NCBI GenBank assembly: GCA_963677495.2
Contig: CAXXOU010000004.1
Coordinates: 704,001-768,000 of the forward strand
Source of the DNA: Candidatus Cloacimonadales bacterium
Lineage (GTDB): Bacteria > Cloacimonadota > Cloacimonadia > Cloacimonadales > JAFGVF01
Length of the DNA: 64,000 nt
Direction of reading: 5' to 3'
Within the stretch, counting starts at the first letter, position 1. Every line of letters starts with the position of its first letter. Made by a program: the position numbers and the translations under genes. Positions 4,349 through 27,494 of this stretch are shown piece by piece. The notes beneath the pieces are model-generated. The model was given only the letters and a program-made list of their open reading frames with translations, made no database searches and had not been told where the DNA came from.

Positions 4349-5266
4349 ATGGCTTTCACTAAACTATCTCAAACATTCGATTTCTTAAAGGATAAACCAA
4401 AGAAGAAACTTGTTGCTGTATATGCAAATGACTCTCACACAATCGGAGCTGTTAATATGGCAGTTGATAAAGGTATTATTGATGGTATCTTACTCGGTGA
4501 CAAGGAGACAATCGAGAAGGTTTGTAAGGAAGAGGGAATCGATGTTAATAAGTTCCAGGTTATTCATGAATCAAATCCGATGCAGTGTGCTTTGAAAGCA
4601 TGTGATATGATTAATGCCGGTGAAGGTGACCTTATTATGAAAGGTCTCTTAAGCACTGATCAATATATGAGAGCTATCCTTAATAAAGAGCGTGGCCTCA
4701 TGGAGAAGAAAGCTGTGCTTAGTCATGTAACTGTGTTTGAGATTCCAAGTTATCATAAGCTTATGATTGCCGGTGATGTTGCTATTATCCCTGCTCCGGA
4801 CTTGAATCAGAAGATTGCTATTACTAACTACCTAATAAAAACAGCTCATGCACTTGGTATCGAAAAACCTAAAGTTGGTATGCTCGCTGCTTCTGAGCAG
4901 ACTCTTCCTAAGATGCAAGCTTGTGTTGACGCGGCTATTATCTCTAAGATGGCCGAAAGAGGTCAGATTAAAGGTGCCTATGTTGACGGTCCTCTCGCTT
5001 TTGACCTTATGGTTGATGCTGAGTCAGTTAAAATTAAAAAGCTTGTTAGCCCTGTTGCCGGTGATGTTGATTGCGTTGTATTCCCTAATATTGAAAGCGG
5101 AAACGTATTCTATAAATCAATCACACGCTTCGGTGGTGCATCACTTGGTGCTCTCGTTGTTGGAGCTAAGGTTCCGGCTGTGCTCTCATCTCGTGGTGAC
5201 ACAACCGAAACTAAGATGTACTCAATTGCACTCGGTGCTACTCTTGCTTTCTTGAATAATAAATAA
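4349..5266 (+). CDS. ptb: Phosphate butyryltransferase / phosphate acyltransferase (PTA_PTB family)
   Basis: LIMKGLLST, DGPLAFD, SPVAGDVD, PNIESGN and SSRGD motifs. Confidence 0.85.
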   Translation: MAFTKLSQTFDFLKDKPKKKLVAVYANDSHTIGAVNMAVDKGIIDGILLGDKETIEKVCKEEGIDVNKFQVIHESNPMQCALKACDMINAGEGDLIMKGLLSTDQYMRAILNKERGLMEKKAVLSHVTVFEIPSYHKLMIAGDVAIIPAPDLNQKIAITNYLIKTAHALGIEKPKVGMLAASEQTLPKMQACVDAAIISKMAERGQIKGAYVDGPLAFDLMVDAESVKIKKLVSPVAGDVDCVVFPNIESGNVFYKSITRFGGASLGALVVGAKVPAVLSSRGDTTETKMYSIALGATLAFLNNK

Positions 5267-5316: not shown

Positions 5317-5464
5317 AATATCCACAGACTTATACTGACAGGCACTGACTTGCACTGACATATAGGAAGAGTTGCCACTGATTCCTCAGATTAGCTCAGA
5401 AAGTACAGAGGTGTCAATGGCATTTTAAATTGGTACAGTTTGGCATTTAAAAATGGTACAGTCT

Positions 5465-6196
5465 TCATTTTTGAAAATTCCTTAGTCTAAAGCTGTCTCC
5501 GAGCATTGTAATTGGTTGTGAGTGATGGAGTAATCTATCAAGAATAGCAGTTGCTATCACATTGTCGTTAAAAATAGCTCCCCATTCATTAAACAACCTA
5601 TTCGATGTTATGATTACTGATCTAAATTCGTATAAGAGATGGATGAGTCTAAAGAACAGATTAGCTGCCTTTGTCTGGAGAGGAAGATACCCCATCTCAT
5701 CTATAACTATCAGATCATTCTTGGCTATATTGCTTAGATATTTATCTATGTTGTTATCTGCTTCAGCTAGTACAAGTTCTTCGATAAGGTTGTTCAGATT
5801 ATAAAACACCACCTTATATCCTGCCTTTATTGCTTCATAACTGAGTGCTGTTGCAACATGAGTCTTACCTACTCCCGGAGGTCCCATTAAAATTATATTC
5901 CTCCTCTGCTCCAGCCAGACAAAGTTCTTCCACTCCTTTACTTGTCTTTTGGTTATTACTTGTTGATAAGCATAGTCGAACTCATCAAAGGTCTTTATTA
6001 CCGGGATGTGAGCCTGTTTAAGTCTTCTGTTGATATTGGTTTGATTCCTTCCTGAGTTCTCTTTTTCAAATAGATAATGTACGAACTCCAGATAAGTCAT
6101 ATTCTGTTTCTCTGCTTCTAAAACTGCACTTTCAAGAGTATTCAAAATATGAGTACAACGAGCCCTTTTGATGTATGTTTTAGTTATCTCTATCAT
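5465..6196 (-). CDS. istB: IS21 helper ATPase IstB
   Basis: GPPGVGKT Walker A, IDEMGYLP, TSNR.F..W and AILDRLLHH motifs. Confidence 0.95.
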   Translation of the reverse strand: MIEITKTYIKRARCTHILNTLESAVLEAEKQNMTYLEFVHYLFEKENSGRNQTNINRRLKQAHIPVIKTFDEFDYAYQQVITKRQVKEWKNFVWLEQRRNIILMGPPGVGKTHVATALSYEAIKAGYKVVFYNLNNLIEELVLAEADNNIDKYLSNIAKNDLIVIDEMGYLPLQTKAANLFFRLIHLLYEFRSVIITSNRLFNEWGAIFNDNVIATAILDRLLHHSQPITMLGDSFRLRNFQK

Positions 6197-6197
6197 C

Positions 6198-7673
6198 TTA
6201 TAACACCTTCATGTAGTCATCTAATGAGCGCTCTATTAATGAACTCTCTGAGTCTTGTTGTGGTTCTGATTCTGATAATTCATTTAGCTTCATTTGTCTT
6301 ACTTTTGCATTCAGAAGCTTCTCTATGGCTGTTGCCTTTACATGCGAAAGAGTCATTACCTCAGGAAGCACTGACTCCCATACATCTGTTTCATAGTTAC
6401 GCTTAAACTTGCTTAAGGCTCTCAACTGATCCCTTGCTATTTTAGGGTTATCATTAACAAGCCTCTGGATTAGTTCTTCTCCTTGGATATATTCACTCAT
6501 CTCATCCTTTACTCGCTCAATAAGCTCTTGTAGCACTACCGTAAAATCCCGATAATGATTAGTGTTTTTGATGATTTTGCCTTTTTCTGTGCATAGCTCA
6601 TGTTGGCAGATTTCCTTTCTTGTATAAATATCCATCACCACTAAAGTGCTCTTTTCTTTTTGCACATATACCTGTTTTCGCTGATACTCTAATGGAACAG
6701 AGTACTTATTACCCTCATACGAGATTAAGCCTGTTTTATCTGCATTACGAACTTCTAAAGTGAAGATAAACTCTGGAATATCTTTTAGCTTTAACCTCTC
6801 TTCTTGCCATACTTCTGATGGTACTTTACGGGTTGTGCCATGGGTTCTGCCGTTAAAGTGTAAAAGCCACTCAAGTCCGCGTGAACGCAGGTCTGCCAGG
6901 TCTTTGAACTCTTTGCCATACATAAAGCCATGCTTTACTTCTGAGACATTACGCTCTACTTTACCCTTGCTTTGTGGATCATAGCCTTCGCATACATGAG
7001 GATGAAAGCCCGTTTTTGCTGCAAACTGATGGAACTGATTATTTAAGATTACTTCCCGATAGCGTTCCTGTATTACTACAAGCTTTGTCTGGTCGTAAAC
7101 ACACTCTGAAGGGATACCTTCAAAATAGATAAAAGCTTCACGATGAGCTTCAATAAACCTTGATGTGTTATATGGTGTTGTGCTCCAATGGACATAGCTT
7201 TGACGCGAGTGGGAAAGCACAAAAACTATAAAATAAACTCTTTGACGTTTATTACCCAAAACTACTTTCATCTCACCTGGATCAACTTGAACCTGAACAC
7301 CGGGAGCCGTCTCGATTACTGCATAATTACGGTATTTATCGACAGGATAAGTCTGCTTTAGCTTACGAACAAAATCTCGGAAAGCTCTGTCTTTTGCTTT
7401 TATCTCAGGGAACTTTTTCTTAACTTCTAAATATAGTACACTAGCTCTTAATCGTGGATATTTGCTAAGCCTTTCGCGGACATATTGCTCACATATGGCA
7501 AAACTGCTTTCACGAATGCTATTGTTTATTAGTTCCATGAACTCATCAAGTGTCATATTTATGTATTTACCTACTGTTGTCTTTGATAGAGACAACTCCT
7601 CTGCGATCTTACGCTGACTATGCCCTTGCTTATGCATAGTTTTTATTGAATGATACACTTCTACTCCAATCAT
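6198..7673 (-). CDS. istA: IS21 transposase IstA
   Basis: N-terminal HTH, ETAPGVQVQVD, YDQTK and PQSKGKVER motifs; start moved to ATG 7673 behind GGAG RBS. Confidence 0.95.
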   Translation of the reverse strand: MIGVEVYHSIKTMHKQGHSQRKIAEELSLSKTTVGKYINMTLDEFMELINNSIRESSFAICEQYVRERLSKYPRLRASVLYLEVKKKFPEIKAKDRAFRDFVRKLKQTYPVDKYRNYAVIETAPGVQVQVDPGEMKVVLGNKRQRVYFIVFVLSHSRQSYVHWSTTPYNTSRFIEAHREAFIYFEGIPSECVYDQTKLVVIQERYREVILNNQFHQFAAKTGFHPHVCEGYDPQSKGKVERNVSEVKHGFMYGKEFKDLADLRSRGLEWLLHFNGRTHGTTRKVPSEVWQEERLKLKDIPEFIFTLEVRNADKTGLISYEGNKYSVPLEYQRKQVYVQKEKSTLVVMDIYTRKEICQHELCTEKGKIIKNTNHYRDFTVVLQELIERVKDEMSEYIQGEELIQRLVNDNPKIARDQLRALSKFKRNYETDVWESVLPEVMTLSHVKATAIEKLLNAKVRQMKLNELSESEPQQDSESSLIERSLDDYMKVL

Positions 7674-8081
7674 ACCTACTCCAAACTGTCTTGAAGTAGT
7701 CATTTTTAAAGGTTGGCAGTTTTGTACCACTTTTCACTGCCATCGTGTACCATTTCTCACTGCCATTGACAGTACAGAGGAAGATTACAGTTAGGTGATA
7801 GCCCATTAATTAAAGAGATTCCTATTGTACATTCCACTACTTAGGTGGTTTTGCCCAAAAGTGCCCGAAACTCATAGGGGGGGACAGAATGAGAGAGAAA
7901 TAGGGGAATATATTTTAGCTTCGCTGAAAATGGGGGTTTAGGGGTTATAGGGAACAATTTTTATTGGCGAGAAATAATCATAGAGGGACAAAATAACGGA
8001 GAAATTTGGAGATGTTTGGCGAAGTTTGGCAATTTAATGGCAATTAGCAATTTACAGCACTACCGGGACTCGGTTCTTATA

Positions 8082-8538
8082 CTTTAGGTCAAAATGATAG
8101 AGAAATAATAGGCGACATAGGCAACAGTGATAAGCGACACTAACGCTAAGTAATTAGAAAATAATACTTTAGATAGGCGACAATATAGGCAACATACACG
8201 CTTTAGGTCAAAATGGTAGAGAAATAATAGGCGACATAGGCGACAGCGATAAGCGACACTAACGCTAAATAATCAGAAAATAATACTTTAGATAGGCGAC
8301 AATATAGGCAACATACACGCTTTAGGTCAAAATGGTAGAGAAATAATAGGCGACATAGGCGACAATATAGGCGACACACACGCTTTAGGTCAAAATGGTA
8401 GAGAAATAATAGGCGACATAGGCGACAGCGATAAGCGACACTAACGCTAAATAATCAGAAAATAATACTTTAGATAGGCGACAATATAGGCGACACACAC
8501 GCTTTAGGTCAAAATGATAGAGAAATAATAGGCGACAC
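8082..8538. repeat. Tandem array of 119-bp units near the prophage left end
   Basis: Units start CTTTAGGTCAAAATG at 8082, 8201, 8320, 8383 and 8502 (spacing 119,119,63,119); about 19 TA(G/A)GC(G/A)ACA cores. Confidence 0.95.
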
Positions 8539-9921: not shown

Positions 9922-10116
9922 ATGAAGAATGGAGAAGCGAAAATTGAGAAAGATCATCCACTTGAGAAGCTTAGTGATAAGCTTTGTGCTCTTGTTAGTC
10001 ATTGCGATGGAGACTGCGGATGTTGCCCTGTCGGGATAAGCAACCTTGAGAAGAATATAGAAGATGCTGGTTATATACATCGAAGCAAGTTACAGACGGA
10101 GGCACTTGATGACTAA
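9922..10116 (+). CDS. Small Cys-rich early phage protein
   Basis: GAGGAGG RBS; HCDGDCGCCP. Confidence 0.6.
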   Translation: MKNGEAKIEKDHPLEKLSDKLCALVSHCDGDCGCCPVGISNLEKNIEDAGYIHRSKLQTEALDD

Positions 10117-10408
10117 AAGACAATTCAAATACACACCGGGACAGGTAAAGGCAGCTATTATGCTCCGAGAGGGAAAGTACTCACCTTCCTGGATTAGTTT
10201 TAAGCTACATGATCTCAGGATTGCCAAGGTTGGAGCACAGATGGTGAGTCAGGTGGTTAATGGTAACAGATTCAATTCTAAAGTTGTCGCTTGGATTGAG
10301 GAAGAGTTCGCAGATGAGTTAGCGGTTGTTAGTAAACAGGACGCAATTCCCCGAACTCCCGATGGTCGTAATGGTGACCGCTCCGATAGTGTTGGGGGTG
10401 CTGTATGA
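10109..10408 (+). CDS. Ner/Cro-like transcriptional regulator with repeat-derived C-terminal tail
   Basis: VKAAIMLR...MVSQVVNG HTH-like pattern; position opposite cI; GGAGG RBS. Confidence 0.55.
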   Translation: MTKRQFKYTPGQVKAAIMLREGKYSPSWISFKLHDLRIAKVGAQMVSQVVNGNRFNSKVVAWIEEEFADELAVVSKQDAIPRTPDGRNGDRSDSVGGAV

Positions 10409-10644
10409 TATATGCTTATGGTATCATTGCATTCTTACTGATTCTCTTAGTAAGAAGCTTACTGGTTGAGTTTAGGCTTCGAGGACGTTATCAAGATAAG
10501 ATTCTTGAGATTGAATCATATCGTCGTGAGATTTCACGAATCCAGCAGAAAGTCGAAAAGGCACATAGTGAGTTTATGGGTGGAAAACCTGTTACAAGCT
10601 TCTCTAGGTCATCGCAGATTAAGGCTAATGGTGGGGTGGAATGA
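10405..10644 (+). CDS. Small membrane-anchored phage protein
   Basis: N-terminal TM helix; ATGA overlap with neighbours. Confidence 0.6.
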   Translation: MIYAYGIIAFLLILLVRSLLVEFRLRGRYQDKILEIESYRREISRIQQKVEKAHSEFMGGKPVTSFSRSSQIKANGGVE

Positions 10645-10994
10645 TGAAGAAAAGAACCACCATTCCCAACATCATGGAATTACGAGAGGGGAATAACGAG
10701 CGAGACACTCATTCTACAGGTAAGACTAAGAAAGAACTGAATGTGAAGCGTGAGAAGATGAGCCTTCCTGAGTTTGTAGCAGCTATAAAAGCAACTACTA
10801 AGCTCAATGTTAAGTTTACTCAAAGGGGATTCGTTACCGGGTTCAGAGAGGTTGTTTATATTCAAGTGCATTATAATCCCATTGAGGGCATGTACAAAGT
10901 GTTTATGGCAGCCGGAGAGCATTACATCGAATGGAATCACAACATCATTTTTACTAATCAAATCAGAACAATATATTCCGGATGGAGGGGATAA
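10641..10994 (+). CDS. Hypothetical phage protein
   Basis: ORF coupled to both neighbours. Confidence 0.55.
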   Translation: MMKKRTTIPNIMELREGNNERDTHSTGKTKKELNVKREKMSLPEFVAAIKATTKLNVKFTQRGFVTGFREVVYIQVHYNPIEGMYKVFMAAGEHYIEWNHNIIFTNQIRTIYSGWRG

Positions 10995-11641
10995 TGGAAC
11001 AAGTAATAGTTAATAATGAACAAGCTATAGCTACAGAAGTATATAATCAGTTAAGAGAGAAAATAAGCACAACATGTTTAGCATCTGCAGATAGCTTAAG
11101 AATGCTACTCAATGGTTTAGGTTTTTATCATAAGAGTGAGTTTCCTGAAGCAAAAATTGAGTATTTCGAAGATCCAGGTTCAGGAGAATCAGTAGGTGTT
11201 CAGCTTGTTATTGATAATGGAAGACCATATACAGGGATTGGCAGTGACGTAGTGGACACAGTTGACGGTAGTGAACAAGAGAGTAATCCTTCAACTCAGA
11301 TCAGGAAGCCAATAGTTACAATTGATGATGAGGATATCTCAGATATGTTCTATCAACGACTTGCGATTTTGAAAGCCAATTTCGAAGTAAACCAATTAGA
11401 AGCTACAAGAGATCTAATCAAAAAAAAGGGGATATTCAAACCAGATTTCACTGTATTAGATTTCTATAGACTGAGCTCATCATCTGGTGGAGCTGCCTTA
11501 AACTTATTGAATATGGTCATTGGGGATTTGTTGGAAGACGCTGACTCAGTATCTACTTGCGAAGGTTACAATGAAGTGAACCTCCTTCCCGGTGAAGCAA
11601 ATAAGAAACAACCAAATAAAGATATATCGTCCCATCGATAA
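10994..11641 (+). CDS. Hypothetical acidic phage protein
   Basis: GGAGGGG RBS, TAATG overlap. Confidence 0.6.
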   Translation: MEQVIVNNEQAIATEVYNQLREKISTTCLASADSLRMLLNGLGFYHKSEFPEAKIEYFEDPGSGESVGVQLVIDNGRPYTGIGSDVVDTVDGSEQESNPSTQIRKPIVTIDDEDISDMFYQRLAILKANFEVNQLEATRDLIKKKGIFKPDFTVLDFYRLSSSSGGAALNLLNMVIGDLLEDADSVSTCEGYNEVNLLPGEANKKQPNKDISSHR

Positions 11642-11736
11642 TACGTAACCAACCCTCATGGTCTGAACCATTCGCAAGGTCAAGACCATTCCGAAGGTGA
11701 CCATGGGGGCTATTACGTATTACGATTGGAGAAAAT

Positions 11737-14163
11737 ATGAAGATTTGGAAAAGCACTAAGGAAGCTGCTGAACTGATGAACACAACCGAAAGGACAATTC
11801 AAAGACGAGCTAAGTCCGGGATGCTTGAAAGCCGGGATGGATTGAGTTCGAAAGGACGGAAAAGGCTTGAGGTACTTGTTGAGGTTGATGATCAACCTCA
11901 ACAGCCTAAAGCTGATAGTCTAGAGCCTAAAGCTGAAGGGAACCACCCCGCCGTAAGTTGCTCGCTTCCAGCTTGCGAGCTCCCTGCGGTCGGTTCACGG
12001 CACCCCTCCACAGAGGGGAATCAGGAGCAACAGCCTATAGCTGATAGCCTAAAGCCTATAGTTGAGAACCAGGGAGATGCAGGCAGGGATGCCTGCGTAC
12101 GTAGCTCAAGCGAAGGTGGACAGGACGCATCTACACAGTTGATGCACTCCAAAGACAAGCAAGCTGTATGCCCTACGGAATCAGAGGACTTTGTTGGACG
12201 GGACGCAATTCCCCGAACTCCCGTTGGTCGTAATGGTGACCGCTTCGAAATAGCAACACCTGCTGAGAAGGATGAGGAGAAAGCTTTTAAGGAATGCTCT
12301 CAATCCGAGAGGGAGCAAGCTTGGGCAAAGCTTCAGATTGTGAAGCTCTGGAATGATTTCAGATCAGCTAAGAAGGTTGAAGGTATGTCTAAGACAGAAA
12401 GCTCTAAGTTCTGGGATTCTCGCAGTAGCATTCTTGCCGGGAAACAGCTTCAGGTACTTGGGATTCAGGAAATCAAGTCTAAGACCATCTATAAGTGGAG
12501 TAAGGAACTGAAGGAATCCGGGCATATCAATTATCCGGTTGCTTTGATTCCTAACAGGCACTCATCCGGTCGCAAGAGCAAGGTTCCTGATGAAGTACTC
12601 TTCAGGATTAGGCAATTAGCTGCAGATCCCAGAGAGTTGAGAGCAAGCCATATCTATAAGATTCTTCTTAGTGAACACCCGGATAGTTTCTCTTTCCCAT
12701 GCTCCAGAAGAACAGTTACAAGGTTCGTGGCACAGGCTCGTGCTGATAGAGTACTTGTCTCACTTGGTAAAGGCAAGAAGGCTTATAAGAACAATGTGAG
12801 AGTTCATATTAAGCGTGTCAATGACAACATACCCGGAAAGCACTATGTTGGTGATGGTCGTCCTCATGACTTTATGGTATACTCTCCTTGGAGACATCAT
12901 GCTTCTGAGAATCTAAGACTCTTAGTAAGACCTTACGCAACAATGTGGGTTGATGCTGCAACCGGGTTGATTGTTGGTTATACAGCAAGCTATTCAGAAT
13001 CTACTCACACAGTTCTTAACTCCTTATCCAGAGCAATAAAAGCATGGGGAGTGCCTGAACGAATCACTGTTGATAACGGAAAATCTTACCAGAATTACTA
13101 CAATGATCCGTACTACTTCCTGAACAATCGAAAAGAGAATTCATCTCCATGGAAAAAGGCAAAGGGCTTTATAGATCAAGGTCAAGTGGGAGCATATAGA
13201 AAGGTTGGTATTGAGAAGATAACCTACTCCATTCCCGGTAATCCTGAATCAAAGCAGATTGAAGCCATCTGGAACTACGTATTTGAGGACTTTGAACGTT
13301 CACAGGCTATCTATTTAGGTAAATCACCAGAAAAGCGAATGGAAGCCCTTAATATGCCCACAATCAAGCTAATTGAGAAGTATGGGGATATGATACCTAA
13401 TTGGGACGAGTTTATTCAACAGATCAATGCAAGGATTCAGGAATGGAATAGCTCCAAGCGTGCAGTTCTTAAAAGTGCTGATGGTAATATGATGAGTCCA
13501 TTAGAGGTGATGGAATACTTCAAAGATGAAATCCAGATACCTAATCCGGGTTTCATTGATGAGTGGTTATCTGTTCCGGTGGAAGCTAAGGTTCAAAGGG
13601 ATGGAATCTACTGTGCCGGGAACTGGTACCAGCACAGGCAAAGTAAAGTCCATCTTAATAAAAAGTGCTTAGTGTTGTTTGATGAAATGGCACCTGAGAC
13701 TGCTCAGATTATGACTGAGAATGGTCAACTTTGGGAGGGCTTAGCAGAGCTTTATGTTCCCGGATCATACGTTGAAGAGGAGCAGATTCAAAAAGCAATT
13801 AGTACAGCTCGAAGTCTTGAAAAACAGGGCTTAGCAGTCTATGCAGGTGTTCGCTCTCGTATACCAGGTAAGCTTGATCAGAAAGAGGTCAATAAGATAG
13901 CTAAGAATACCGTCCTTGAAATTGAGGGTGATGCACATAAGAGACGAGAACGAATCAAAGATACAGGGAAAGAACGTCTATCAATTCCAAAAAGAAGCAA
14001 ATCACCTGAAGGTTCCGGTGTTGAACCAACACCTGACTGGAAGGAACTATTAAAAGAGATTGAAGTACCGGAAACAGAAGTGCAACCGGAAGAACCAAAG
14101 AATACAGAAGAGGATGCAATCCTCGCTACAATTGAAGGTAAATCAAATTATAGGGGGCTTTAA
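11737..14163 (+). CDS. MuA-like DDE transposase
   Basis: N-terminal HTH (STKEAAELMNTTERTIQRRAK); YVGDG, TVDNGKSY and PGNPESKQIE catalytic motifs; C-terminal VQRDGI beta-barrel. Confidence 0.9.
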   Translation: MKIWKSTKEAAELMNTTERTIQRRAKSGMLESRDGLSSKGRKRLEVLVEVDDQPQQPKADSLEPKAEGNHPAVSCSLPACELPAVGSRHPSTEGNQEQQPIADSLKPIVENQGDAGRDACVRSSSEGGQDASTQLMHSKDKQAVCPTESEDFVGRDAIPRTPVGRNGDRFEIATPAEKDEEKAFKECSQSEREQAWAKLQIVKLWNDFRSAKKVEGMSKTESSKFWDSRSSILAGKQLQVLGIQEIKSKTIYKWSKELKESGHINYPVALIPNRHSSGRKSKVPDEVLFRIRQLAADPRELRASHIYKILLSEHPDSFSFPCSRRTVTRFVAQARADRVLVSLGKGKKAYKNNVRVHIKRVNDNIPGKHYVGDGRPHDFMVYSPWRHHASENLRLLVRPYATMWVDAATGLIVGYTASYSESTHTVLNSLSRAIKAWGVPERITVDNGKSYQNYYNDPYYFLNNRKENSSPWKKAKGFIDQGQVGAYRKVGIEKITYSIPGNPESKQIEAIWNYVFEDFERSQAIYLGKSPEKRMEALNMPTIKLIEKYGDMIPNWDEFIQQINARIQEWNSSKRAVLKSADGNMMSPLEVMEYFKDEIQIPNPGFIDEWLSVPVEAKVQRDGIYCAGNWYQHRQSKVHLNKKCLVLFDEMAPETAQIMTENGQLWEGLAELYVPGSYVEEEQIQKAISTARSLEKQGLAVYAGVRSRIPGKLDQKEVNKIAKNTVLEIEGDAHKRRERIKDTGKERLSIPKRSKSPEGSGVEPTPDWKELLKEIEVPETEVQPEEPKNTEEDAILATIEGKSNYRGL

Positions 14164-14166
14164 GCA

Positions 14167-14862
14167 ATGAAGAGCAACGTAATAGTACCTATATTCAACA
14201 CAAGAGAAGCAGCAGCAAAAGTGAAAGAACTGCAAACAAGACCTAAGGCAGATGTTCCCGGGTTAGCCTGCATGTATGGTTGTCCCGGTCTTGGAAAGTC
14301 TTATTGGTCTGAGAGCTATGCATCACAGAACAATCACATTTGGATCAGAATGAAAGAAGCTGAAACAGCTAAGGGCTTTATGTCCAGATTGCTCAAACGC
14401 TTGGTGTATCGTGATGAAGGTCAAAACAGGAACATCTCAGGTTCAACAGATGAGATATACAAAGAGTGTGAGGAGATTCTTCAGCGTAATCCTGATTGGG
14501 TAGTGTTTATTGATGAAGTGGATAGAGCTCTTGGTGGTCGCAAAACTAAGGTTCTTGAGATGATTAGAGACCTTGCTGACTGTACTTATGCAAGCTATAT
14601 CCTGATTGGAATGGAGCATCTTCGCAGGTTAATCCAGAAGTACTCAGCTCATTATTTTGATAGATGTTACTTCTTCTATGAATTCAGACCTGCAACTTCT
14701 GAAGAGATGAAGGCGATTATAGAAGCAAAGATAGATTACAGTGCATCTGATAAGGTCGTTCAGGCAACGATGGAAAAGTCAGGTGGTACATTGCGAAAGA
14801 GTATCAAGCTCATGGTGGATATGGAGGAAGCTAGAAATGTCCGTAGAAACAGCCAAAAATAG
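14167..14862 (+). CDS. MuB-like AAA+ transposition ATPase
   Basis: GCPGLGKS Walker A, VFIDEVD Walker B, IRDLAD and ILIGM; follows the transposase. Confidence 0.9.
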   Translation: MKSNVIVPIFNTREAAAKVKELQTRPKADVPGLACMYGCPGLGKSYWSESYASQNNHIWIRMKEAETAKGFMSRLLKRLVYRDEGQNRNISGSTDEIYKECEEILQRNPDWVVFIDEVDRALGGRKTKVLEMIRDLADCTYASYILIGMEHLRRLIQKYSAHYFDRCYFFYEFRPATSEEMKAIIEAKIDYSASDKVVQATMEKSGGTLRKSIKLMVDMEEARNVRRNSQK

Positions 14863-15274
14863 ACTCAGAGACTTCGCTGTGATGAATGAAACTCCCTTCA
14901 CAATCTCCAGAGCTGCATTAGTTACCGGATACAGTATGTCCTGTGTATCCAGGAACCTTGCTGTTCTTAAGAAAGAGGGGTTTGTGCGTGAAATCGAAAC
15001 CGGAACAAGATTCAAGTCCTTTGTAGTAGAGAAAGAGATTCTACCTAAGAAAATGGAGCAGTTAACGGAACGTGTGTTCACTGAGATCCAGAATCAGAAT
15101 TTTGTAAGTAAAGAGATAGCTGAAAAGCTTAAGTGCAGTGTGGATAGAGTTTATAGGTGCCTTAAAGTACTTGAGCGTAGAGGAAGGGTAGAGGTTATCG
15201 TTAAGAAGAATGGCAAGATTACTGTGGCAAGACTTCCTAAGTATGATGCCATCCCGGAGGTAAGTAATGTCTAA
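14837..15274 (+). CDS. Tandem winged-HTH DNA-binding protein
   Basis: Two HTH-like segments (SCVSRNLAVLKKEG; EIAEKLKCSVDRVYRCLKVLERRG). Confidence 0.7.
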   Translation: MSVETAKNRLRDFAVMNETPFTISRAALVTGYSMSCVSRNLAVLKKEGFVREIETGTRFKSFVVEKEILPKKMEQLTERVFTEIQNQNFVSKEIAEKLKCSVDRVYRCLKVLERRGRVEVIVKKNGKITVARLPKYDAIPEVSNV

Positions 15275-15608
15275 CGTAGTTAAGGACGTACTCCAGAAGG
15301 CTATTGATACCAGGCAACGCAAGTTGGATAAGATAATTGAAGAGCAAGAGCATGATTGGTTCGAAGATATGAAGGCTGAGAGAGAGCGATATAATGAGTA
15401 TGTAAAGAAGTTCAACTCAAGCACCGTAGAGCAAAAACTGGAGCTAATAGATGAGGTCTTAAAGCAAAATCAAATCACTCAGAAAGCATATCAACTATGG
15501 ATCAAAGATAGAGGTTATCTCTGGGATAAACGTGCTGTGATTGAGAAAGAGGTTAGCAAACTAAAAAATGCTTTATATATACTTACACACAGAGGTTACC
15601 ATGAATAA
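15267..15608 (+). CDS. Hypothetical phage protein
   Basis: GGAGG RBS, coupled ORF. Confidence 0.6.
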   Translation: MSNVVKDVLQKAIDTRQRKLDKIIEEQEHDWFEDMKAERERYNEYVKKFNSSTVEQKLELIDEVLKQNQITQKAYQLWIKDRGYLWDKRAVIEKEVSKLKNALYILTHRGYHE

Positions 15609-15972
15609 AGAACAATATGCTAAGAATCTCCGTAGTAGGATAGTAGCAAATATAAAGCACAATTTCAATGTAGATCACCATGAGTTACTGGAGGAGTGGG
15701 GATACGGTTCCTCACTCCGGAAAATTCGGGATATAGATGTCCTGAAGGAGATCCTCTTTGTGGCTCAAGGTGGAACAATTCAAAGTCAGAGCATAGGCTC
15801 TCTGGATGAGCAGGGACGCTATGCGTGGGCTCTTATGAAAGAAGCAGGTTGGGATACTCGCAGATTGAGATCCCTGATGATCAAGAAGTGTGGTGTTGGT
15901 ACTTGGAAGCAACTCTCTACTTCAGAGAAAAAGCAAGTGATACAGATACTGAAGAGCTATCAGCAGAGCTGA
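15601..15972 (+). CDS. GemA/gp16-like (DUF1018-like) protein
   Basis: C-terminal LRSLMIKKCGV..WKQLS..EKKQVIQILK resembles Mu GemA; typical position. Confidence 0.55.
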   Translation: MNKEQYAKNLRSRIVANIKHNFNVDHHELLEEWGYGSSLRKIRDIDVLKEILFVAQGGTIQSQSIGSLDEQGRYAWALMKEAGWDTRRLRSLMIKKCGVGTWKQLSTSEKKQVIQILKSYQQS

Positions 15973-16069
15973 AATGTTTAATTATGAATGCAAAATGATG
16001 AATGAAAAGAACCACCCCACCGTTTCCAACGGCACCCCTCCACAGAGGGGAATTAAGATAGGAGGATAG

Positions 16070-16255
16070 ATGGAAGTTAGCGTTTGGAACATAGTTTACT
16101 CAGGAGCAGATGACAAAGATGTCACTGTCAGTGTAATAGCAGAAGATTTCGAGAAAGTAGCAGCATACATCCATACAAAGGTGTGGGCAACCACGGTGAA
16201 GGATGTGTACTATAATGGACGGATGGATTGTTTGATTAAGGATTTTAGAGGATAG
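16070..16255 (+). CDS. Hypothetical phage protein
   Basis: GGAGGA RBS. Confidence 0.55.
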   Translation: MEVSVWNIVYSGADDKDVTVSVIAEDFEKVAAYIHTKVWATTVKDVYYNGRMDCLIKDFRG

Positions 16256-16256
16256 T

Positions 16257-16463
16257 ATGGCAAAAGAGCAACAAGAGGACTGGATAGTTACTCAAAAGGA
16301 AGAGGACGACGCTCTGAAAGCACGGAAGGAGTCTGCATTTATGGAGATGCTATTTGCTAGTGCTGAGCCGGAACAGTATAAGAAAAGCTTAGCTGAACAG
16401 AAACAGAAGCAAACAGAGACTAATAGAGATAAACAGGGTTCGAACCCTGCTGGTAAGGAGTAA
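16257..16463 (+). CDS. Hypothetical phage protein
   Basis: GAGGA RBS, operon spacing. Confidence 0.55.
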   Translation: MAKEQQEDWIVTQKEEDDALKARKESAFMEMLFASAEPEQYKKSLAEQKQKQTETNRDKQGSNPAGKE

Positions 16464-16467
16464 AAAT

Positions 16468-17109
16468 ATGGCTAACTTAGTGAAAATCAAAGGTAAGAAT
16501 CACTGGATTAATGCTGAAGGTAATCCGGTAGAAGTATCACGTATATTCCCTGAAGAGAAAGCCAGGGAAAGAGTTGTACATAAGGTGTTTAAAAAGGTCT
16601 CTAGAACTTCTGTTGTGCTTAAGAAAGCTCATGAAGAGATCTGGAATACAGTCGATGATTATCTTCAAAAGTTAGCTGAAGAGCATGGTGAGACTTGGCA
16701 AGGTAATGCACAGATCATGTCATTTGATCAAACACAAAAGATTGATGTCAAAGTGACAAAGTACATCGGATTCAACGAGCATTTCCAGTTAGCTGAGAAG
16801 AAGATTCTTCGCTTTATCGAAGAGGTGACTGAAGGTCTTAATGGTGATGTTGTGGAGTTGATTCGTGGTGCCTTTCAACGAGATAAGAAAGGTCAAATTG
16901 ATTCCAAGAAGATCCTTGGTTTAAAGAGACTTAATATCAAATCTAAGATCTGGGCTGAAGCTATGGAGTTGATTGATAAGTCTATCTACGTGAAGAGTTC
17001 AAAGCGTTATATCAACTTCTATATCCGTGATCAGGATGGTAAGTGGGAAGTTGTTCCTCTTAACTTCAGTGCTTTGAAGGTTGTGGAGGTTGAAGATGAA
17101 AAAGAGTAA
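16468..17109 (+). CDS. DUF3164 family protein of Mu-like phages
   Basis: SFDQTQKI, AFQRDKKG, LKRLNI..W..AM and YINFY.RD..G.W....LNFS patterns. Confidence 0.8.
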   Translation: MANLVKIKGKNHWINAEGNPVEVSRIFPEEKARERVVHKVFKKVSRTSVVLKKAHEEIWNTVDDYLQKLAEEHGETWQGNAQIMSFDQTQKIDVKVTKYIGFNEHFQLAEKKILRFIEEVTEGLNGDVVELIRGAFQRDKKGQIDSKKILGLKRLNIKSKIWAEAMELIDKSIYVKSSKRYINFYIRDQDGKWEVVPLNFSALKVVEVEDEKE

Positions 17110-17509
17110 ACAGAGACCTGCAGGGACTGACAAAGACATTCAGGAGCAGAAGAAGTGGACTGCGAAGTACTTCAAGCGTGAAGAGTTTGCTTGTACTTGT
17201 TGTGGAGAAGTGAAGATAGACCAGGAAATGGTGAATATGTTAGATTATGCAAGACGCATTGCTAAGACACCATTCTCAATCAATTCCGGTTATCGTTGTC
17301 CTAAGCACAATGCTGAAGTTGGAGGAAAGGAGACTTCAAGCCATTTAAAGGGCTATGCTGTGGATATTAAAGTAACATCAATGAGAAGCAGATTCAAGAT
17401 ACTATCTGCTTTGATGGATGCAGGCTTTGAGCGTATCGGTATCGCTAAGACCTTTATTCATGTGGACAATGATCCTGATAAGGGTCCTGAAGTTATTTGG
17501 ATGTATTGA
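17096..17509 (+). CDS. Peptidase M15A endolysin
   Basis: F..EEFACTCCG, SGYRCPKHN..VGG, SSHLKGYAVD and FIHVD motifs. Confidence 0.9.
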   Translation: MKKSKQRPAGTDKDIQEQKKWTAKYFKREEFACTCCGEVKIDQEMVNMLDYARRIAKTPFSINSGYRCPKHNAEVGGKETSSHLKGYAVDIKVTSMRSRFKILSALMDAGFERIGIAKTFIHVDNDPDKGPEVIWMY

Positions 17510-17510
17510 T

Positions 17511-18248
17511 ATGACAAAAGAACAAGCTCAAGAGAAGATAAGTAAACTTCTGAAGCTTTCAGAATCTCCTAATCAAAATGAAGCCTTCGCAGCTCTTGCG
17601 AAGGCTCAGGAGATTGCTTTGAAGTTTGGGTTGGAGATGAAAAAACTCAAAGCTGAAGTTCTTGAAAAGACGATTCAATCACATTATAAAAACTTTCCGA
17701 AATGGTATCGACTTCTTCTTAGCGTTATTGCTCAGCACTTTAGATGTCGAGAGATGACAGTTCAAGGGTATAAACCGTGTACTGAATTTAGCGTACGAGG
17801 AAGTAAGTCCACACAAGTAAAGGTAGATGAAATCATCTTTATCGGTATGCCAAGTGATGTTGATATAGCAACTCAGTGTCTCCAATATAGCGTTAACTCA
17901 ATGAATAAGCTTTGGAGTGATTGGTATGAAGGCTATTCGAAAGGTACTAATACTGCAGTAAAAAGAACTAAAGAATGGAAAAACTATGTCTCGAAAGTTA
18001 AAAGGAATTATCGAGAAGGCTTTGGCATGGGGTTGAACGATGTTCTAACTCAGAACGAAGAACAGTATGGACTTGTAGTTGTTATCCCCTCCGAGGTTGA
18101 AGACTATTGCTCCGAAATGCATTCTGATGTTAGAATTTTAAAAGCAAGACAATCAAATGGAGAACTCATCAGCCAAGCTTATCGCAAAGGTTATAAAGAT
18201 GGATCTCAAACGAAACCTGAAACTATGCACACTATGATAGGTGGTTAG
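17511..18248 (+). CDS. DUF2786-domain protein
   Basis: KISKLLKLSESPNQNEAFAALAKAQ N-terminus; C-terminal AYRKGYKDG. Confidence 0.8.
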   Translation: MTKEQAQEKISKLLKLSESPNQNEAFAALAKAQEIALKFGLEMKKLKAEVLEKTIQSHYKNFPKWYRLLLSVIAQHFRCREMTVQGYKPCTEFSVRGSKSTQVKVDEIIFIGMPSDVDIATQCLQYSVNSMNKLWSDWYEGYSKGTNTAVKRTKEWKNYVSKVKRNYREGFGMGLNDVLTQNEEQYGLVVVIPSEVEDYCSEMHSDVRILKARQSNGELISQAYRKGYKDGSQTKPETMHTMIGG

Positions 18249-18249
18249 A

Positions 18250-18876
18250 ATGGCATTTCCTCGTGAGTTGTATGATGCATTGGCTGATTCAATCGGTAAG
18301 GATGTTGTGGATGGGAAGATCCGCAACCTTCTTACCCGGTTGAAGAAGAAAGCTGAGTCCGGTGAAGCACCTAAGCTAAATGAGCTTGAGGTTGCACGGG
18401 ATGTGATTCGTTTCTTTAATCAGGAGACCGGGGGAGCAATATCTGAGAAATCAGCTACTGCTCTCCGGTTGATTCGTTGTAGATTGAAAGATGGGTATAG
18501 TGCAGAAGATTTAAAGCACGTTGTGAGCTATAAAAACAAGCACTGGAAGGGAAACTCAGAGATGAAGGGGTTCATACGCCCTTTGACTCTGTTTGGCACG
18601 AAATTCGAGGGTTATTTGAGTGAGTATTCAAGATGGGAACAGGGACGTTCAAGGACTTGCACAGACAGGCAAGGACAACACCCCACCGTTTCCAACGGCA
18701 CCCCTCTACAAGAGGGGAATAAGCTTGATTGGAGATATGAGACAAATCTGGAACGGTTCGAAAGGATTCAAAGAGAAAGAGCTGAAGGTAAGGATCCTAA
18801 TCCTTCAGCTTTGAAGATTGATAAGAAAACAGGGAAAGTAATAAAAGAGGATATGGATGGCAGCAGAACTATTTAA
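18250..18876 (+). CDS. Conserved phage C-terminal domain (Phg_2220_C-like) protein
   Basis: RLKDGYSAEDLKHVV..K...W.....M..FIRPLTLFGTKFEGYL. Confidence 0.8.
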   Translation: MAFPRELYDALADSIGKDVVDGKIRNLLTRLKKKAESGEAPKLNELEVARDVIRFFNQETGGAISEKSATALRLIRCRLKDGYSAEDLKHVVSYKNKHWKGNSEMKGFIRPLTLFGTKFEGYLSEYSRWEQGRSRTCTDRQGQHPTVSNGTPLQEGNKLDWRYETNLERFERIQRERAEGKDPNPSALKIDKKTGKVIKEDMDGSRTI

Positions 18877-19063
18877 GAGAGATAGGTTGTATTCAGTTAA
18901 AGAGATTGCAGAGAAGCTTGATGTGTCAGAGAAAACTATTACCAGGGAGATTAACAACCCTGATACCGTACTTAAGAGTCACAAGATTCGTAGGACTGTG
19001 AGAGTTACAGGAGCTAGCTTAATAACTTATATGAAGAACTGTGAAATGGAGCCTTGGAAATGA
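18857..19063 (+). CDS. Excisionase/MerR-like HTH protein
   Basis: LYSVKEIAEKLDVSEKTITREI. Confidence 0.8.
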   Translation: MAAELFKRDRLYSVKEIAEKLDVSEKTITREINNPDTVLKSHKIRRTVRVTGASLITYMKNCEMEPWK

Positions 19064-20382
19064 GTGAGAGAATATACGATAAGTACATGAATGAGCTGTA
19101 TTTGGTTCTGAACAATACTTGGAAGAAGCAAGTCAAGAAAGCTGCACGTGATGCGATTGTTGAGCTCAGCTCTCTACCTGCAAGCCAGAAACCTGATAAT
19201 GAGTTTGTGGAAGAGATGATGCAGAATACTGTTAATCGCTTAACTACTGAGCTTGAAGGTGAGGTTGCTCCACAGGTTAGGAAGATCAATGAGAAGTGTT
19301 ATAGAATGGCTGGTGCTGACACTCAGAAGCCTTTGAATATCTCTGTTGGACTTTATGGCAACAAGCAGAAGGTGACAGTTGAGAAGGTTAATACTCAGAA
19401 CCTCTTCTGGATCAGGAAACACTTTGGAGCAGAGATTCAAGATAAACTGAAGGTCTCTTTAGCTGAAGCTCTTGATAAGGGTTACTCTGTACGTGAGTTT
19501 GGTGATGTGCTCAAAGGGCAGTTTAATAACCTGAATCAGAGCTCTCATTACTGGCGTGGTTTTGCCAATAATGCTATTGCCAGGACAAAGACGATTGGAT
19601 CTATTGAAGCAATGGAAAGGCATAAGATTGAGAAAGCTAAGATTGTGGCAAGGATGGATGATAGAACTACTGATATCTGCAGAGAGCTTAATGGCAGGAT
19701 CATTGAAGTTTCCCACATGATCGAAGCTAAGAATAAGATGCTTGATATTAAGACTGAAGGTAGATCTACTGAGGATGTTAAAGCTGAGATTCAAGCAGTA
19801 GCTCCCTTCTTCAGAAATGCAGATCAGATTAGAGGGAAGTCCACCAGAGAGATACAGTCTAAAGGAACCGGGGTTGGTATGCCACCATATCATTGGGGTT
19901 GCAGAACCAGGATCATTGCCTGGGTTGATGAGTTTGATGATCCCGGTGCTGTTACTCCCGGAAGTAACTCAGACCCTAATGACAAATATGCTAAGAACTT
20001 GACTCAAACAGAGATGCTTGAAAAGTGGAATGGAGTTAAGAGCAAGAGATATCCAACGTTCTCTGATGGTGATTTAGAGAGTGATTGGAAGAAACATGGT
20101 CAAAGAGAGTTTGGTTTCACAGATAAACGTGAGTATATCCAAAAAGCCAGGGACATATACAACAATGCAGATAGAGTGACATGCAGGACTTTTAAGGGAC
20201 AACTTCAATTCCAAGTATACAGCTTTGAGCAGAAGGGATATGTTGTTGTTGACACTAATAGCATAATCAGAGGTTGCTATGGACATTCAAAACCAGGTGG
20301 GACTGAGAATGCATATAACTATTACAAGAAACATTACTATGAGATAACACAACCGGAGGAAAAATGGCGGGACGTGAACTAA
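19060..20382 (+). CDS. MuF (phage head morphogenesis) protein with C-terminal putative toxin domain
   Basis: DDRTTDICRELNG and PPYHWGCRT MuF motifs; ~150-aa extension with KKHG.REFG.....EY...A. Confidence 0.85.
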   Translation: MSERIYDKYMNELYLVLNNTWKKQVKKAARDAIVELSSLPASQKPDNEFVEEMMQNTVNRLTTELEGEVAPQVRKINEKCYRMAGADTQKPLNISVGLYGNKQKVTVEKVNTQNLFWIRKHFGAEIQDKLKVSLAEALDKGYSVREFGDVLKGQFNNLNQSSHYWRGFANNAIARTKTIGSIEAMERHKIEKAKIVARMDDRTTDICRELNGRIIEVSHMIEAKNKMLDIKTEGRSTEDVKAEIQAVAPFFRNADQIRGKSTREIQSKGTGVGMPPYHWGCRTRIIAWVDEFDDPGAVTPGSNSDPNDKYAKNLTQTEMLEKWNGVKSKRYPTFSDGDLESDWKKHGQREFGFTDKREYIQKARDIYNNADRVTCRTFKGQLQFQVYSFEQKGYVVVDTNSIIRGCYGHSKPGGTENAYNYYKKHYYEITQPEEKWRDVN

Positions 20383-20627
20383 CTTATCAAGAGATTTTTC
20401 AAGAGCTTAATGAGCCTTTAAAGATGGACAGTTACTTGAATATGTGCATGAATATGGAGCATGAAGAAGGTTTAGTTGGGAATGAAGAGTTTAGAAAGAT
20501 CCTAAAGCAAAAGAAGAAGTTGATCATGAGTGATGAGCCTAAAGAGTTAACTCGTATGCTTAAGGGTTGGCGTGAGGAACATGACACTCCGAGAGACCAC
20601 TATTGGTGGTGGATTGATCAGTTATAA
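20364..20627 (+). CDS. Putative immunity protein for the MuF toxin
   Basis: Small ORF overlapping the MuF 3' end, ends P.DHYWWW. Confidence 0.6.
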   Translation: MAGRELTYQEIFQELNEPLKMDSYLNMCMNMEHEEGLVGNEEFRKILKQKKKLIMSDEPKELTRMLKGWREEHDTPRDHYWWWIDQL

Positions 20628-20628
20628 G

Positions 20629-20655
20629 AAAAGCCCCGGTTGACCGGGGCTTTTT
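20629..20655. terminator. Bidirectional intrinsic terminator
   Basis: AAAAGCCCCGGT-TG-ACCGGGGCTTTTT between convergent genes. Confidence 0.85.
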
Positions 20656-20689
20656 AACTATAAAGACTTAGTCTTAACGAAAGCAAATA

Positions 20690-21238
20690 CTACAATGAAA
20701 CAACTTCTCTTGCTCCTAAGTGACTATCTAATTGTAACTCAATATCCCTAGGATCAACAACATTAAAAAGAAGCTTTACTTTGTTAAAGTCTGAGTCAAA
20801 AGTATATAATATTGGTTTATCATCCATGACAGGGCTATCAATTTGCTTTTGTGACATTTTCGAGTAAACAGAAGAAGCAATATATCCGTCAGCCTTTATG
20901 CAAGATCTGCATTTACTAGCTTGCCCAGAGAATGATTTCGGGATTACTCTGCTACACATCTCTGCTTGCTTTAAGCCAAACTCAACAACCGTAAACATCT
21001 TAGTCAGGATTTCTGCTAGTCTAGCCTGTTTTTCTACAGGAACAAGTATCAGAAGTTCACTATATGAAATCGTAGATATACAGAAGTTGTATTGATCTTT
21101 TGCATTTTCATCTTTCAACTTCTTAAGCAACGCTAATGCTGACTCTTTCATCTCTTGTTCACTTTCATTCTTGGGAGCATCACCTCTAATAGCCCATATA
21201 AGGAAGCATGTATCAAAAAAAATGTTATTCTTCTTCAT
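20690..21238 (-). CDS. PIN-domain (VapC-like) ribonuclease
   Basis: FFDTCFLI, STISYSELL, ADGYIA and YTFDSDF acidic motifs. Confidence 0.8.
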   Translation of the reverse strand: MKKNNIFFDTCFLIWAIRGDAPKNESEQEMKESALALLKKLKDENAKDQYNFCISTISYSELLILVPVEKQARLAEILTKMFTVVEFGLKQAEMCSRVIPKSFSGQASKCRSCIKADGYIASSVYSKMSQKQIDSPVMDDKPILYTFDSDFNKVKLLFNVVDPRDIELQLDSHLGAREVVSL

Positions 21239-21259
21239 AAAACCCTCAGTATTAAAATA

Positions 21260-21973
21260 TTAATGTATATGAGCACCAAACTCTTTGATAAGTAAGTCAA
21301 AACCTTCATCAAGGGATATTTTATCATTCCTGTAATAATCAGTGAGTTCTAACATATTTACTTTATTGTTTTTCAATTCTCTACTATTATCTGTAACGAT
21401 ATAGGTTCCCTGAACTAATCCACTTATCACTAAGTTAGAGTATAAATGCTGAGCTAGCTCTATAGCCATATCTTTATCTATTTCTGCCTTTATCTCTAAA
21501 TTGTCGGAATTTCTAAATGTAGCTAAATGTTTAACATGACCTCCAACAGATTCTAAAACAACTTGATGTGTGGAATACTCTTTGAAATCTAGATATGAAA
21601 CTTCGCTTACTGGAGGATAATCAACTTCCGTAAGCTGCTTGAATGGTTTGTTGTAGTCTTCTAGGATGAAACAAGAAGTAGCACCATGCTTACTGTTAAT
21701 AGCCGACAATTCACTCAAGTCAGAATTTGATGTTTTTGCAATTCCATTAACGAGAAGTAAAGCAAAAGCAGTAGCCACACTAAATGTGAACCTAGCACAA
21801 CAATCTGTTAACTCACAAAGTTTAATTTCAGCTGATTGTCCCAGTTCATTGTTATGGTTAACTGAGGTAACTTGTTTGTTAATTGTTTTAAGGACTGTAA
21901 TGACTTCTTCCAGGTCTAGTTCGGAAAGCTTTGCTGGTGAATCAATAATATAATCAAATTTTGTGAAAGCCAT
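21260..21973 (-). CDS. Hypothetical protein, putative partner/antitoxin of the PIN gene
   Basis: GGAGGAGG RBS; lies 21 bp upstream of the PIN gene. Confidence 0.65.
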   Translation of the reverse strand: MAFTKFDYIIDSPAKLSELDLEEVITVLKTINKQVTSVNHNNELGQSAEIKLCELTDCCARFTFSVATAFALLLVNGIAKTSNSDLSELSAINSKHGATSCFILEDYNKPFKQLTEVDYPPVSEVSYLDFKEYSTHQVVLESVGGHVKHLATFRNSDNLEIKAEIDKDMAIELAQHLYSNLVISGLVQGTYIVTDNSRELKNNKVNMLELTDYYRNDKISLDEGFDLLIKEFGAHIH

Positions 21974-24863: not shown

Positions 24864-24872
24864 GAGGAACAA

Positions 24873-26957: not shown

Positions 26958-27494
26958 ATGAAACGATTTATTAATGTGCTGTTGATAGTTATGGTTCTGG
27001 GAATGGTTGCAATGCCAGCTTTGGCTGCAGACGCATTTCCCCAAGCTCCTGATGTCGCACAGGTGACTGCTTCTGAAGAACATACAAGTGTACCTTGGGT
27101 TGCAATTTCAGGCTGGGTCATATTTGTCCTTGTAGCGGGGTTCTTCGCTTGGAAGAAATTCGTTAACAAGCAGGCTTTATCTCAATCTGAAGTTGATATG
27201 ATCTGCGATATGCTACCAGGTAAGAATGCAAGTTGGAGACCAATTGTTGAAAGGTTTGTGACTGCTATCTATGCAACTGAGGATTCCCATCGAGGGAAGA
27301 AGGGATATCAGAAAGCAGAGATAGCAACAAGAGCAGCCCTGGATATGTTGAAGTATGACGCAAAAGTCAATGACAGTAAAGTTAGCAAGCTCCTTAAAAC
27401 TGTAACCGGTGGGGCTAAAACCATCACTTCTGTGGCTTTTAATGCTTTAGTTAGTAATGGAGCCCAACAGCTTGTGAAAAGCATCAAATTTTAG
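26958..27494 (+). CDS. Membrane protein with signal peptide, possibly holin-like (LL-H-like C-terminus)
   Basis: Signal peptide ..PALA/AD, TM helix, then AIYATE....KGYQK. Confidence 0.45.
   Translation: MKRFINVLLIVMVLGMVAMPALAADAFPQAPDVAQVTASEEHTSVPWVAISGWVIFVLVAGFFAWKKFVNKQALSQSEVDMICDMLPGKNASWRPIVERFVTAIYATEDSHRGKKGYQKAEIATRAALDMLKYDAKVNDSKVSKLLKTVTGGAKTITSVAFNALVSNGAQQLVKSIKF

Follow-up and report, generated by a model that had tools for sequence, protein, structure and literature searches.

Dispersed repeat families stacked in frame in the linker of a Mu-type phage transposase from a Cloacimonadales genome

Palindromic repeats that lie in frame within protein-coding genes are known mainly from Rickettsia, and repetitive extragenic palindromes (REPs), which are extragenic by name and by habit, have been little described in phages. 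The Rickettsia palindromic elements (RPEs) are, in the passages of one review that treat them (PMC10969869), approximately 150 bp long, found in unrelated bacterial metabolic genes, with one conserved peptide per family. Here we describe a related arrangement in a stretch of 64,000 nucleotides (the window; G000:C4:704001-768000) from the 3.41-Mb, 37% GC genome of a Candidatus Cloacimonadales bacterium. A Mu-like prophage in this window carries a Mu-type transposase gene in which the linker between an N-terminal helix-turn-helix (HTH) and the part of the protein that aligns with MuA is tiled by short repeats dispersed elsewhere in the same genome.

By comparison with other systems, the RPEs are the closest precedent. 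As far as they are described in that review (PMC10969869), they resemble the repeats reported here in being small palindromic mobile repeats in open reading frames (ORFs) that leave the frame unbroken and lengthen a working protein by a peptide segment, and the present elements do lie in frame within an intact, conserved ORF. Unlike the RPEs, the modules here measure 23-44 nt, belong to seven families, and are stacked and nested in one 357-nt linker of a phage gene. Nor is there one conserved peptide, in a fixed frame, for each family: module frames vary, and the same type of module is read in different frames between genes.

The families themselves recall the REPs, bacterial interspersed mosaic elements (BIMEs) and REPINs, which, in the portions of two papers that bear on the subject (PMC8266576, PMC3733652), likewise consist of short imperfect palindromes whose stems covary, number from tens to over 100 copies outside genes, and form mosaic clusters; a tag, GTAG or CGTC, is associated with REP palindromes in the relevant part of one of these (PMC3733652). 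The likeness extends to Y1 HUH transposase genes flanked by cognate repeats, the arrangement of REP-associated tyrosine transposases (RAYTs). The present cluster differs in that it lies inside coding sequence, in a prophage, in a host of the phylum Cloacimonadota, and mobilisation by RAYTs is putative. At the level of the protein, the linker between subdomains I-alpha and I-beta of MuA (aa 65-89) tolerated pentapeptide insertions, many of which raised activity, in the section of an insertion-scanning study that covers it (PMC3362531). The linker examined here holds the same position as the one described there, between the N-terminal winged-helix and the end-binding domain (PMC3362531), but whereas those were engineered five-residue inserts in E. 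coli phage Mu, this is a natural spacer of approximately 119 residues made of repeat DNA, in a distantly related transposase. Our literature search turned up no report of REPs in Cloacimonadota, nor of REPs in the linker of a phage transposase.

The locus suggests that selfish repeats can pile up within a working gene where the protein tolerates them, and it may serve as a natural experiment on how much arbitrary sequence a tether absorbs, at the site where MuA is most tolerant of insertions. The linker offers several families, one of them nested, that can be ordered in time, together with evidence of repeats riding with a transposable phage, and the strict sense orientation of the repeats in these prophages is a clean and testable oddity. 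For annotators there is also a caution, since low-complexity linkers of phage proteins may be repeat DNA.

The transposase gene and its linker

The transposase ORF is preceded by GGAG-N7-ATG, and its match to phrog_310, annotated 'transposase', spans residues 1-798 of 808. A profile built from this protein and 29 homologs matched two MuA structures, the 4FCY transpososome (E value below) and 1BCM (2.1e-14), and the catalytic columns D373, D446 and E509/E520 are invariant among the 30 homologs; profile and columns together identify an RNase-H-like DDE core akin to that of MuA. The Pfam matches are both below the gathering threshold (rve 5.4e-7, with 30.2 bits against 32.6; DDE_2 7.3e-4), and at the N-terminus HTH_17 is likewise sub-threshold (8.5e-4). 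Conservation across the homologs restarts near aa 173, where the profile alignment begins at position 13 of the 4FCY chain; this construct presumably begins at MuA residue 77, which would place the start of the alignment at subdomain I-beta. Residues 54-172 (119 aa; 11896-12252, 357 nt) constitute the linker. The features of the gene are as follows.

11737..14163, plus strand: Mu-type DDE transposase ORF, 808 aa (phrog_310 1.2e-68; 30-homolog profile against 4FCY 6.7e-21)
11737..11895, plus strand: N-terminal helix-turn-helix, aa 1-53, conserved in homologs (aligns with homolog N-termini MWLTVKEAA...TIRRRIK)
11903..11934, plus strand: family C heptamer array, copy 1, aa 56-66 (nhmmer E 8.4e-6; 42 arrays in the genome)
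11941..11957, plus strand: family D, left part, CACCCC and 5' arm of hairpin 1 (aligned with 38 other D copies)
11956..11995, plus strand: family E mini-element, lodged within the hairpin 1 loop of D (24 copies in the genome; nhmmer E 3.3e-4)
11995..12021, plus strand: family D, right part, 3' arm of hairpin 1 and the CCCCTC-CACA-GAGGGG hairpin (nhmmer E 2e-5; D has 39 copies)
12032..12063, plus strand: family C heptamer array, copy 2, aa 99-109 (nhmmer E 4.1e-8; TRF period 14)
12076..12100, plus strand: family F hairpin GCAGGC-AGGGAT-GCCTGC (nhmmer E 3.8e-4; 5 copies in the genome)
12119..12152, plus strand: family B hairpin GCATC...GATGC (nhmmer E 1.8e-9; 67 copies)
12155..12177, plus strand: family M (14 copies, each in a different 20-kb bin; nhmmer E 8.3e-5)
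12203..12246, plus strand: REP of family A, corresponding to a single arm of a REPIN-like doublet (130 copies; nhmmer E 3.9e-14)

The linker is thus an in-frame stack of several dispersed repeat families, as had been proposed in the initial annotation of this DNA: 271 of its 357 nt are covered by eight copies of seven families, with no stop in the coding frame, and the sub-elements are multi-copy in the same genome (5-130 copies per linker family) rather than single-copy. These families were defined by iterative nhmmer searches against that genome, and while iterative profiles may drift, every final model still matches its linker copy at E <=4e-4 over the whole genome. In a BLAST comparison of sliding 40-nt windows, the HTH and the core gave 0 genome hits, with peaks of 19-39 hits at three spots in the linker and one in the leader of the gene, and the six control 46-nt pieces of the core all matched themselves only. 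Among the 271 repeat clusters of the genome the linker is the richest, both in hits (8) and in families (7).

The other five frames of the linker contain 6, 11, 5, 2 and 6 stops, and just 0.6% of 20,000 mononucleotide shuffles leave the coding frame open. The linker peptide has no Pfam match (best E 0.078), and an Rfam search over 11500-12400 returned only two sub-threshold, miRNA-type chance hits. Contigs from four runs of one sample, which is probably the source of the assembly, match 11600-12233 and 12217-12600 with 0 differences, their breaks falling within repeat A; no allele lacking a module was seen among these contigs, which drop rare variants.

Several individual elements had been pointed out previously. 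The heptamers correspond to family C, but in the host region with which they had been compared (3832-3902), the stretch 3849-3911 is mostly a different heptamer, of an ATGCAAA type, only 3825-3851 scoring as C. The CCACCCC...GAGGGGAAT element (11941-12021) is family D, and its inverted copies lie where they had been placed, at window 862-897 and 906-929; the hairpin near 12079 proved to be family F, and the 44-nt element at 12203-12246 family A, whose other copies include window 63197-63229 and 10341-10382. By contrast, CGTAGCTCA does not hold up as a repeat family, its genomic count being 12 where permuted 9-mers average 13, although the window has 3 occurrences against 0.25 expected. Families B and M had gone unmentioned.

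The two linker copies of C are 87% identical and 129 nt apart. Cyanobacterial short tandemly repeated repetitive (STRR) sequences are heptamer tandem repeats, which family C resembles in its 7-nt units and short tandem arrays; it differs in phylum and in sequence, and the unit variants of the linker avoid in-frame TAA and TAG. The stem of B covaries between GCATC/GATGC and GCACC/GGTGC, and covariation is seen in the stem of D hairpin 1 as well. Within the loop of that hairpin the 38-nt E insert is found in the linker copy alone among the 39 copies of D, and E is nested also in four copies of A. The right part of D is identical at 25/25 positions to window 16029-16053. The ages of the modules look unequal, because the linker copy of A is 43/43 identical to G000:C2:167949-167991, the best matches of the B and C copies are 94% identical, and single-sequence nhmmer matches of the E and F copies to other copies are weak (E 0.07 and 3.8, respectively).

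A further structure lies in coding sequence exactly where the HTH ends and the mosaic starts, and may be a candidate hairpin that nucleated insertions, or a candidate protein-binding site.

11877..11903, no strand assigned: perfect palindrome of 13+13 nt with a 1-nt spacer at the HTH/linker boundary (repeat finding; unique in the genome)

Repeat families in the genome and linkers of related phages

Outside the linker, the families behave as REPs do, being short palindromic units with many dispersed extragenic copies (5 to 178 per family), present on all four contigs and in either orientation. In six of the families, 4-10% of the copies fall within stop-to-stop ORFs of at least 150 aa, against 84% of random 40-mers; for family F the proportion is one of five, namely the linker copy itself. 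The in-ORF copies are mostly this prophage's own, and the remainder occupy repeat arrays or short ORFs that adjoin RAYT genes, with one lying before what is probably the true start of a kinase gene. The C arrays are mostly just downstream of genes. Four minus-strand copies of D stand approximately 210 nt apart at G000:C4:701540-702167, 2 kb before the window, and two more at window 862-929. A group of D copies at G000:C4:951-960 kb was considered as a possible second prophage and rejected, the genes there being host genes (lysyl-tRNA synthetase, kinases); the D hit in a '636-aa ORF' at the same place is upstream of the likely real gene start.

RAYT genes, for which the initial annotation had advised looking, are present, some of them flanked by cognate repeats. 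The genome has 14 Y1_Tnp matches, 13 of which exceed the cut-off. One Y1 gene (G000:C3:76655-76981), with HUH and YxHxNP-type motifs, has inverted copies of A at -105 and +226; its match to NF047646, the REP-associated tyrosine transposase model, is 1.4e-20 (73.7 bits, below the cut-off of 80). Two other Y1 transposase genes are flanked by copies of family U, so that a Y1 HUH gene with cognate repeats is found for A and U; among the genome's Y1 genes none is flanked by repeats of B, C, D, E, F or M.

Further copies occur within the prophage itself, some of them again read through in frame.

10341..10382, plus strand: family A copy, in frame as the C-terminal tail of ORF 10064-10408 (nhmmer E 4.9e-13)
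11667..11698, plus strand: family U REP, intergenic, in the leader of the transposase gene (178 copies; nhmmer E 1.7e-8)
16018..16053, plus strand: intact family D copy, intergenic, with the CACA variant like the linker copy (D-copy alignment)
18684..18720, plus strand: family D copy, in frame in the tail of ORF 18241-18876 past the conserved domain (nhmmer E 9e-12)
27031..27073, plus strand: family A-like copy, in frame near the N-terminus of ORF 26958-27494 (nhmmer E 3.9e-9)

Besides the transposase, three more ORFs of the prophage (10064-10408, 18241-18876 and 26958-27494) therefore read through A or D in frame. The three A copies of the prophage are read in one common frame (DAIP/DAFP...), the translation of the first (...DAIPRTPDGRNGDRS) being in a frame identical to that of the linker copy. 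In ORF 18241-18876 the phrog_428 domain ends at approximately aa 142, and D occupies aa 148-160.

The distribution of module cores indicates that the mosaic is of mixed origin. The A core occurs 39 times in this genome, 3 times in one genome of the same genus and in none of the remaining 10 genomes of the family, while the B core is found solely in three of the four genomes of the host genus; on this sequence evidence both are host-lineage repeats. All four genomes of the genus have the F core, which is also found in 4 copies on the viral contig L058, and the D core occurs in 10 of 12 genomes. The linker form of D is particular: a CACA loop within CCCCTC-loop-GAGGGG is found at 2 of 30 loci in this genome, the linker and 16018-16053, both in the prophage, and this CACA variant is the commonest form in a sister genus, where its copies cluster by Mu-like transposase genes. 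The CACA variant of D thus probably arrived with the phage lineage, as perhaps did F, and because both are common to related phages, part of the mosaic probably travelled with the phage. The earlier view that all of the repeats are those of the host applies to A and B, but not to the D variant of the linker.

The collections searched hold no close relative of the transposase, its nearest homologs being P0005 (also on IMG/VR contig L058), at 49% identity, followed by others at 43-45%. A clean gap in homologs at aa 52-172, which had been expected, was not seen; instead, their linkers are of unrelated sequence and approximately 60-230 aa long, some consisting of 15-nt tandem repeats. Clean module-sized gaps (24-90 nt) do appear among sister-genus paralogs, in which pairwise linker indels measure 39+90, 48+24 and 39+24 nt, all multiples of 3. 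Seven paralogs or orthologs in that genus have D-like, F-like and other hairpin modules in the linker. The linker of L058 holds an A-like module, in a frame that differs from the one here, together with an F module. For one of the sister-genus relatives, L053, the linker finds over 60 dispersed matches across the genome it comes from. In several distant homologs an F-like hairpin stands at the 3' end of the linker irrespective of reading frame, and the translation of D-type modules is HPSTEGN in one set of genes and TPPQRGI in another. With D-, F- and A-like modules and modular indels in both sister-genus and IMG/VR linkers, the suggestion of an insertion hotspot is borne out in the form of a recurrent landing pad. 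Sister-genus genomes hold two to three near-identical copies of such prophages each, and phages with mosaic linkers have therefore recently multiplied.

How the mosaic may have arisen

We consider it likely, with a probability of roughly 0.7, that the linker is a sequence-tolerant tether that has collected selfish repeats under selection for an open frame. A small N-terminal HTH, placed like MuA subdomain I-alpha, would be tethered by a long, unconstrained linker to the end-binding and catalytic part of the protein, and such a tether would accept nearly any peptide, creating 'intergenic-like' space within a gene-dense phage. Short hairpin repeats would have landed in it, or been copied into it, repeatedly and one within another, by RAYT-mediated or recombinational insertion; the contributors would include REP-type elements serviced by the single-strand transposases of the host (RAYTs), tandem heptamers and hairpins of the phage lineage. 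Only frame-open versions would survive because the phage needs its transposase, leaving the in-frame mosaic of eight copies, and in a presumably active protein the peptide may act as a flexible spacer and nothing more specific. Where the initial annotation had spoken of repeats 'tolerated or domesticated', 'tolerated' fits better, because there is no sign of a conserved peptide and the same module, A-like or D-like, is read in varying frames between genes. The long residence that it had deduced is not needed, since the two prophage copies of another genome, G009, have the same repeat sites and repeats travel with the phage.

Several observations weigh against the tolerant tether, one of which concerns orientation. 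All 13 family hits in the prophage (10-28 kb; window 10341-27073), the linker's eight included, are on the coding strand, and stop codons were rejected as the cause, both orientations being about equally open. Host copies show no overall strand bias relative to GC skew or replication strand (276 cells against 210 in total, 64 against 63 for A, with a weak bias for C and D). This uniformity hints at a constraint that plain tolerance would not predict, and strict co-orientation keeps open a strand-specific function or a strand-specific insertion step. A composition-based disorder measure also fails to separate the linker from the folded HTH, placing both on the same side. With the transposase as query, no close relative of the prophage was found in the three other genomes of the genus (0/3), and for that reason there is no before-and-after insertion pair for this gene. 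In the nearest subgroup of homologs (P0002, P0003, P0006, P0007) the linkers are 15-nt tandem repeats (KVDT/KLDT, KADGQ, VLDN) that are not dispersed. Finally, with the CACA variant of D and F common to phages of other genomes, part of the mosaic may have been inherited rather than inserted here.

The orientation would be explained if the hairpins were strand-specific cis-elements of the phage, either RNA punctuation (processing, stabilising, non-terminating) or DNA sites for transposition, with the linker cluster kept, for example, to tune the ratio of full-length transposase to an HTH-only product. In G009, the 31 matches within two prophages all run in the direction of the transposase gene and those outside divide into 15 plus and 16 minus, although these prophages (identified via L051/L053) are copies of each other and their sites are not independent. 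In G007, G008 and G009 alike, the D-core matches by Mu-like transposase genes all share the direction of those genes. F has four copies in 7.3 kb of L058, each on the plus strand and three at the junctions of genes, the F-like hairpin at the 3' end of distant linkers keeps its place in any frame, and the D copy at 16017-16032 is terminator-like when read antisense, a weak hint. Nevertheless, we regard such a role as unlikely. Families and their order vary by lineage, and the nearest subgroup has none; A and B are repeats of the host genus with approximately 100 extragenic copies in both orientations; and the whole-linker RNA fold is no more stable than shuffles (z -0.63). The single orientation of the eight linker copies would also fit a mosaic captured whole from a BIME-like cluster of the host, through illegitimate recombination or imprecise handling of DNA by the phage, rather than by successive insertions, and host clusters with at least three families do exist (11 of 271). 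This seems quite improbable, given that none of the other clusters in the genome shares this order or contains over four of these families, that orientations are mixed in host clusters, that the modules are of unequal age (A 43/43; B and C 94%; E and F weak), and that D is present as a phage-type variant, whereas A and B are of host type. Still further from the evidence, and in our estimation very improbable, is a decaying prophage whose transposase is a dead gene with a frame open by chance. The repeats within three other ORFs of the prophage would agree with it, but the 808-aa frame is fully open with conserved catalytic-core columns, shuffled linkers seldom stay open (the 0.6% given above), the structural genes are long, intact ORFs, and relatives with comparable mosaics occur as two to three near-identical prophage copies per genome with linker indels in multiples of 3.

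A broader proposal, which we advance only tentatively as doubtful but possible, is that Mu-like phages of the Cloacimonadota carry sense-oriented REP-type hairpins and shuttle them between hosts, the phage seeding families that resident RAYTs amplify. The phage-type D variant is common to prophages of different genera, and this host has expanded a derived variant. If seeding does take place, families borne by the phage and families borne by the host would meet at a single coding site, the transposase linker, and the strict co-orientation would stem either from a function or from strand-specific insertion linked to the replication or transcription of the phage.

Neighbouring genes and other repeats

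From its sequence the prophage is Mu-like, with long and intact genes. The ORF next after the transposase encodes a MuB-like protein, an S24/HTH repressor gene lies upstream on the opposite strand, and the long ORFs downstream include portal, head protease, large terminase, tape measure and methyltransferase genes, giving the transposase both a MuB neighbour and phage structural genes. The closest named relative of the transposase gene is in a Candidatus Cloacimonadales metagenome-assembled genome.

14167..14862, plus strand: MuB-like AAA+ transposition ATPase (phrog_296 1.6e-25; Pfam AAA_22 2.4e-12, TniB 1.6e-6)

Tandem repeats of another kind fill the linkers of some related proteins. In one Cloacimonadales genome (G001), two unrelated Mu-like transposases each contain approximately 10 tandem 15-nt units (CTAAGKTGGACAY / CTAAATTGGACAC, KVDT/KLDT) in the linker, at L001 6140-6370 and at L045 ~2815-2985 on the minus strand, and within that genome the unit is almost confined to these two linkers. 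K[VL]D[TI] repeats recur in homolog linkers from other genomes. As a candidate DNA site in the prophage described here, the unit (AAGKTGGACAY) was rejected, with 4 matches against 4.45 expected.

Around the prophage, no tRNA gene was found at window 3800-4400. To its left, at window 5411-7772, lies a probable insertion sequence of approximately 2.4 kb with 12-mers present up to 27 times in the genome, and tandem units of approximately 119 nt (TTAGGTCAAAATGRTAGAGAAATAATAGG...) occupy window 8084-8532, just beyond the repressor end of the prophage. Window 62895-63580 is crowded with other dispersed repeats, among them a stretch of 12-mers rich in the CACTG word that occur up to 101 times in the genome.

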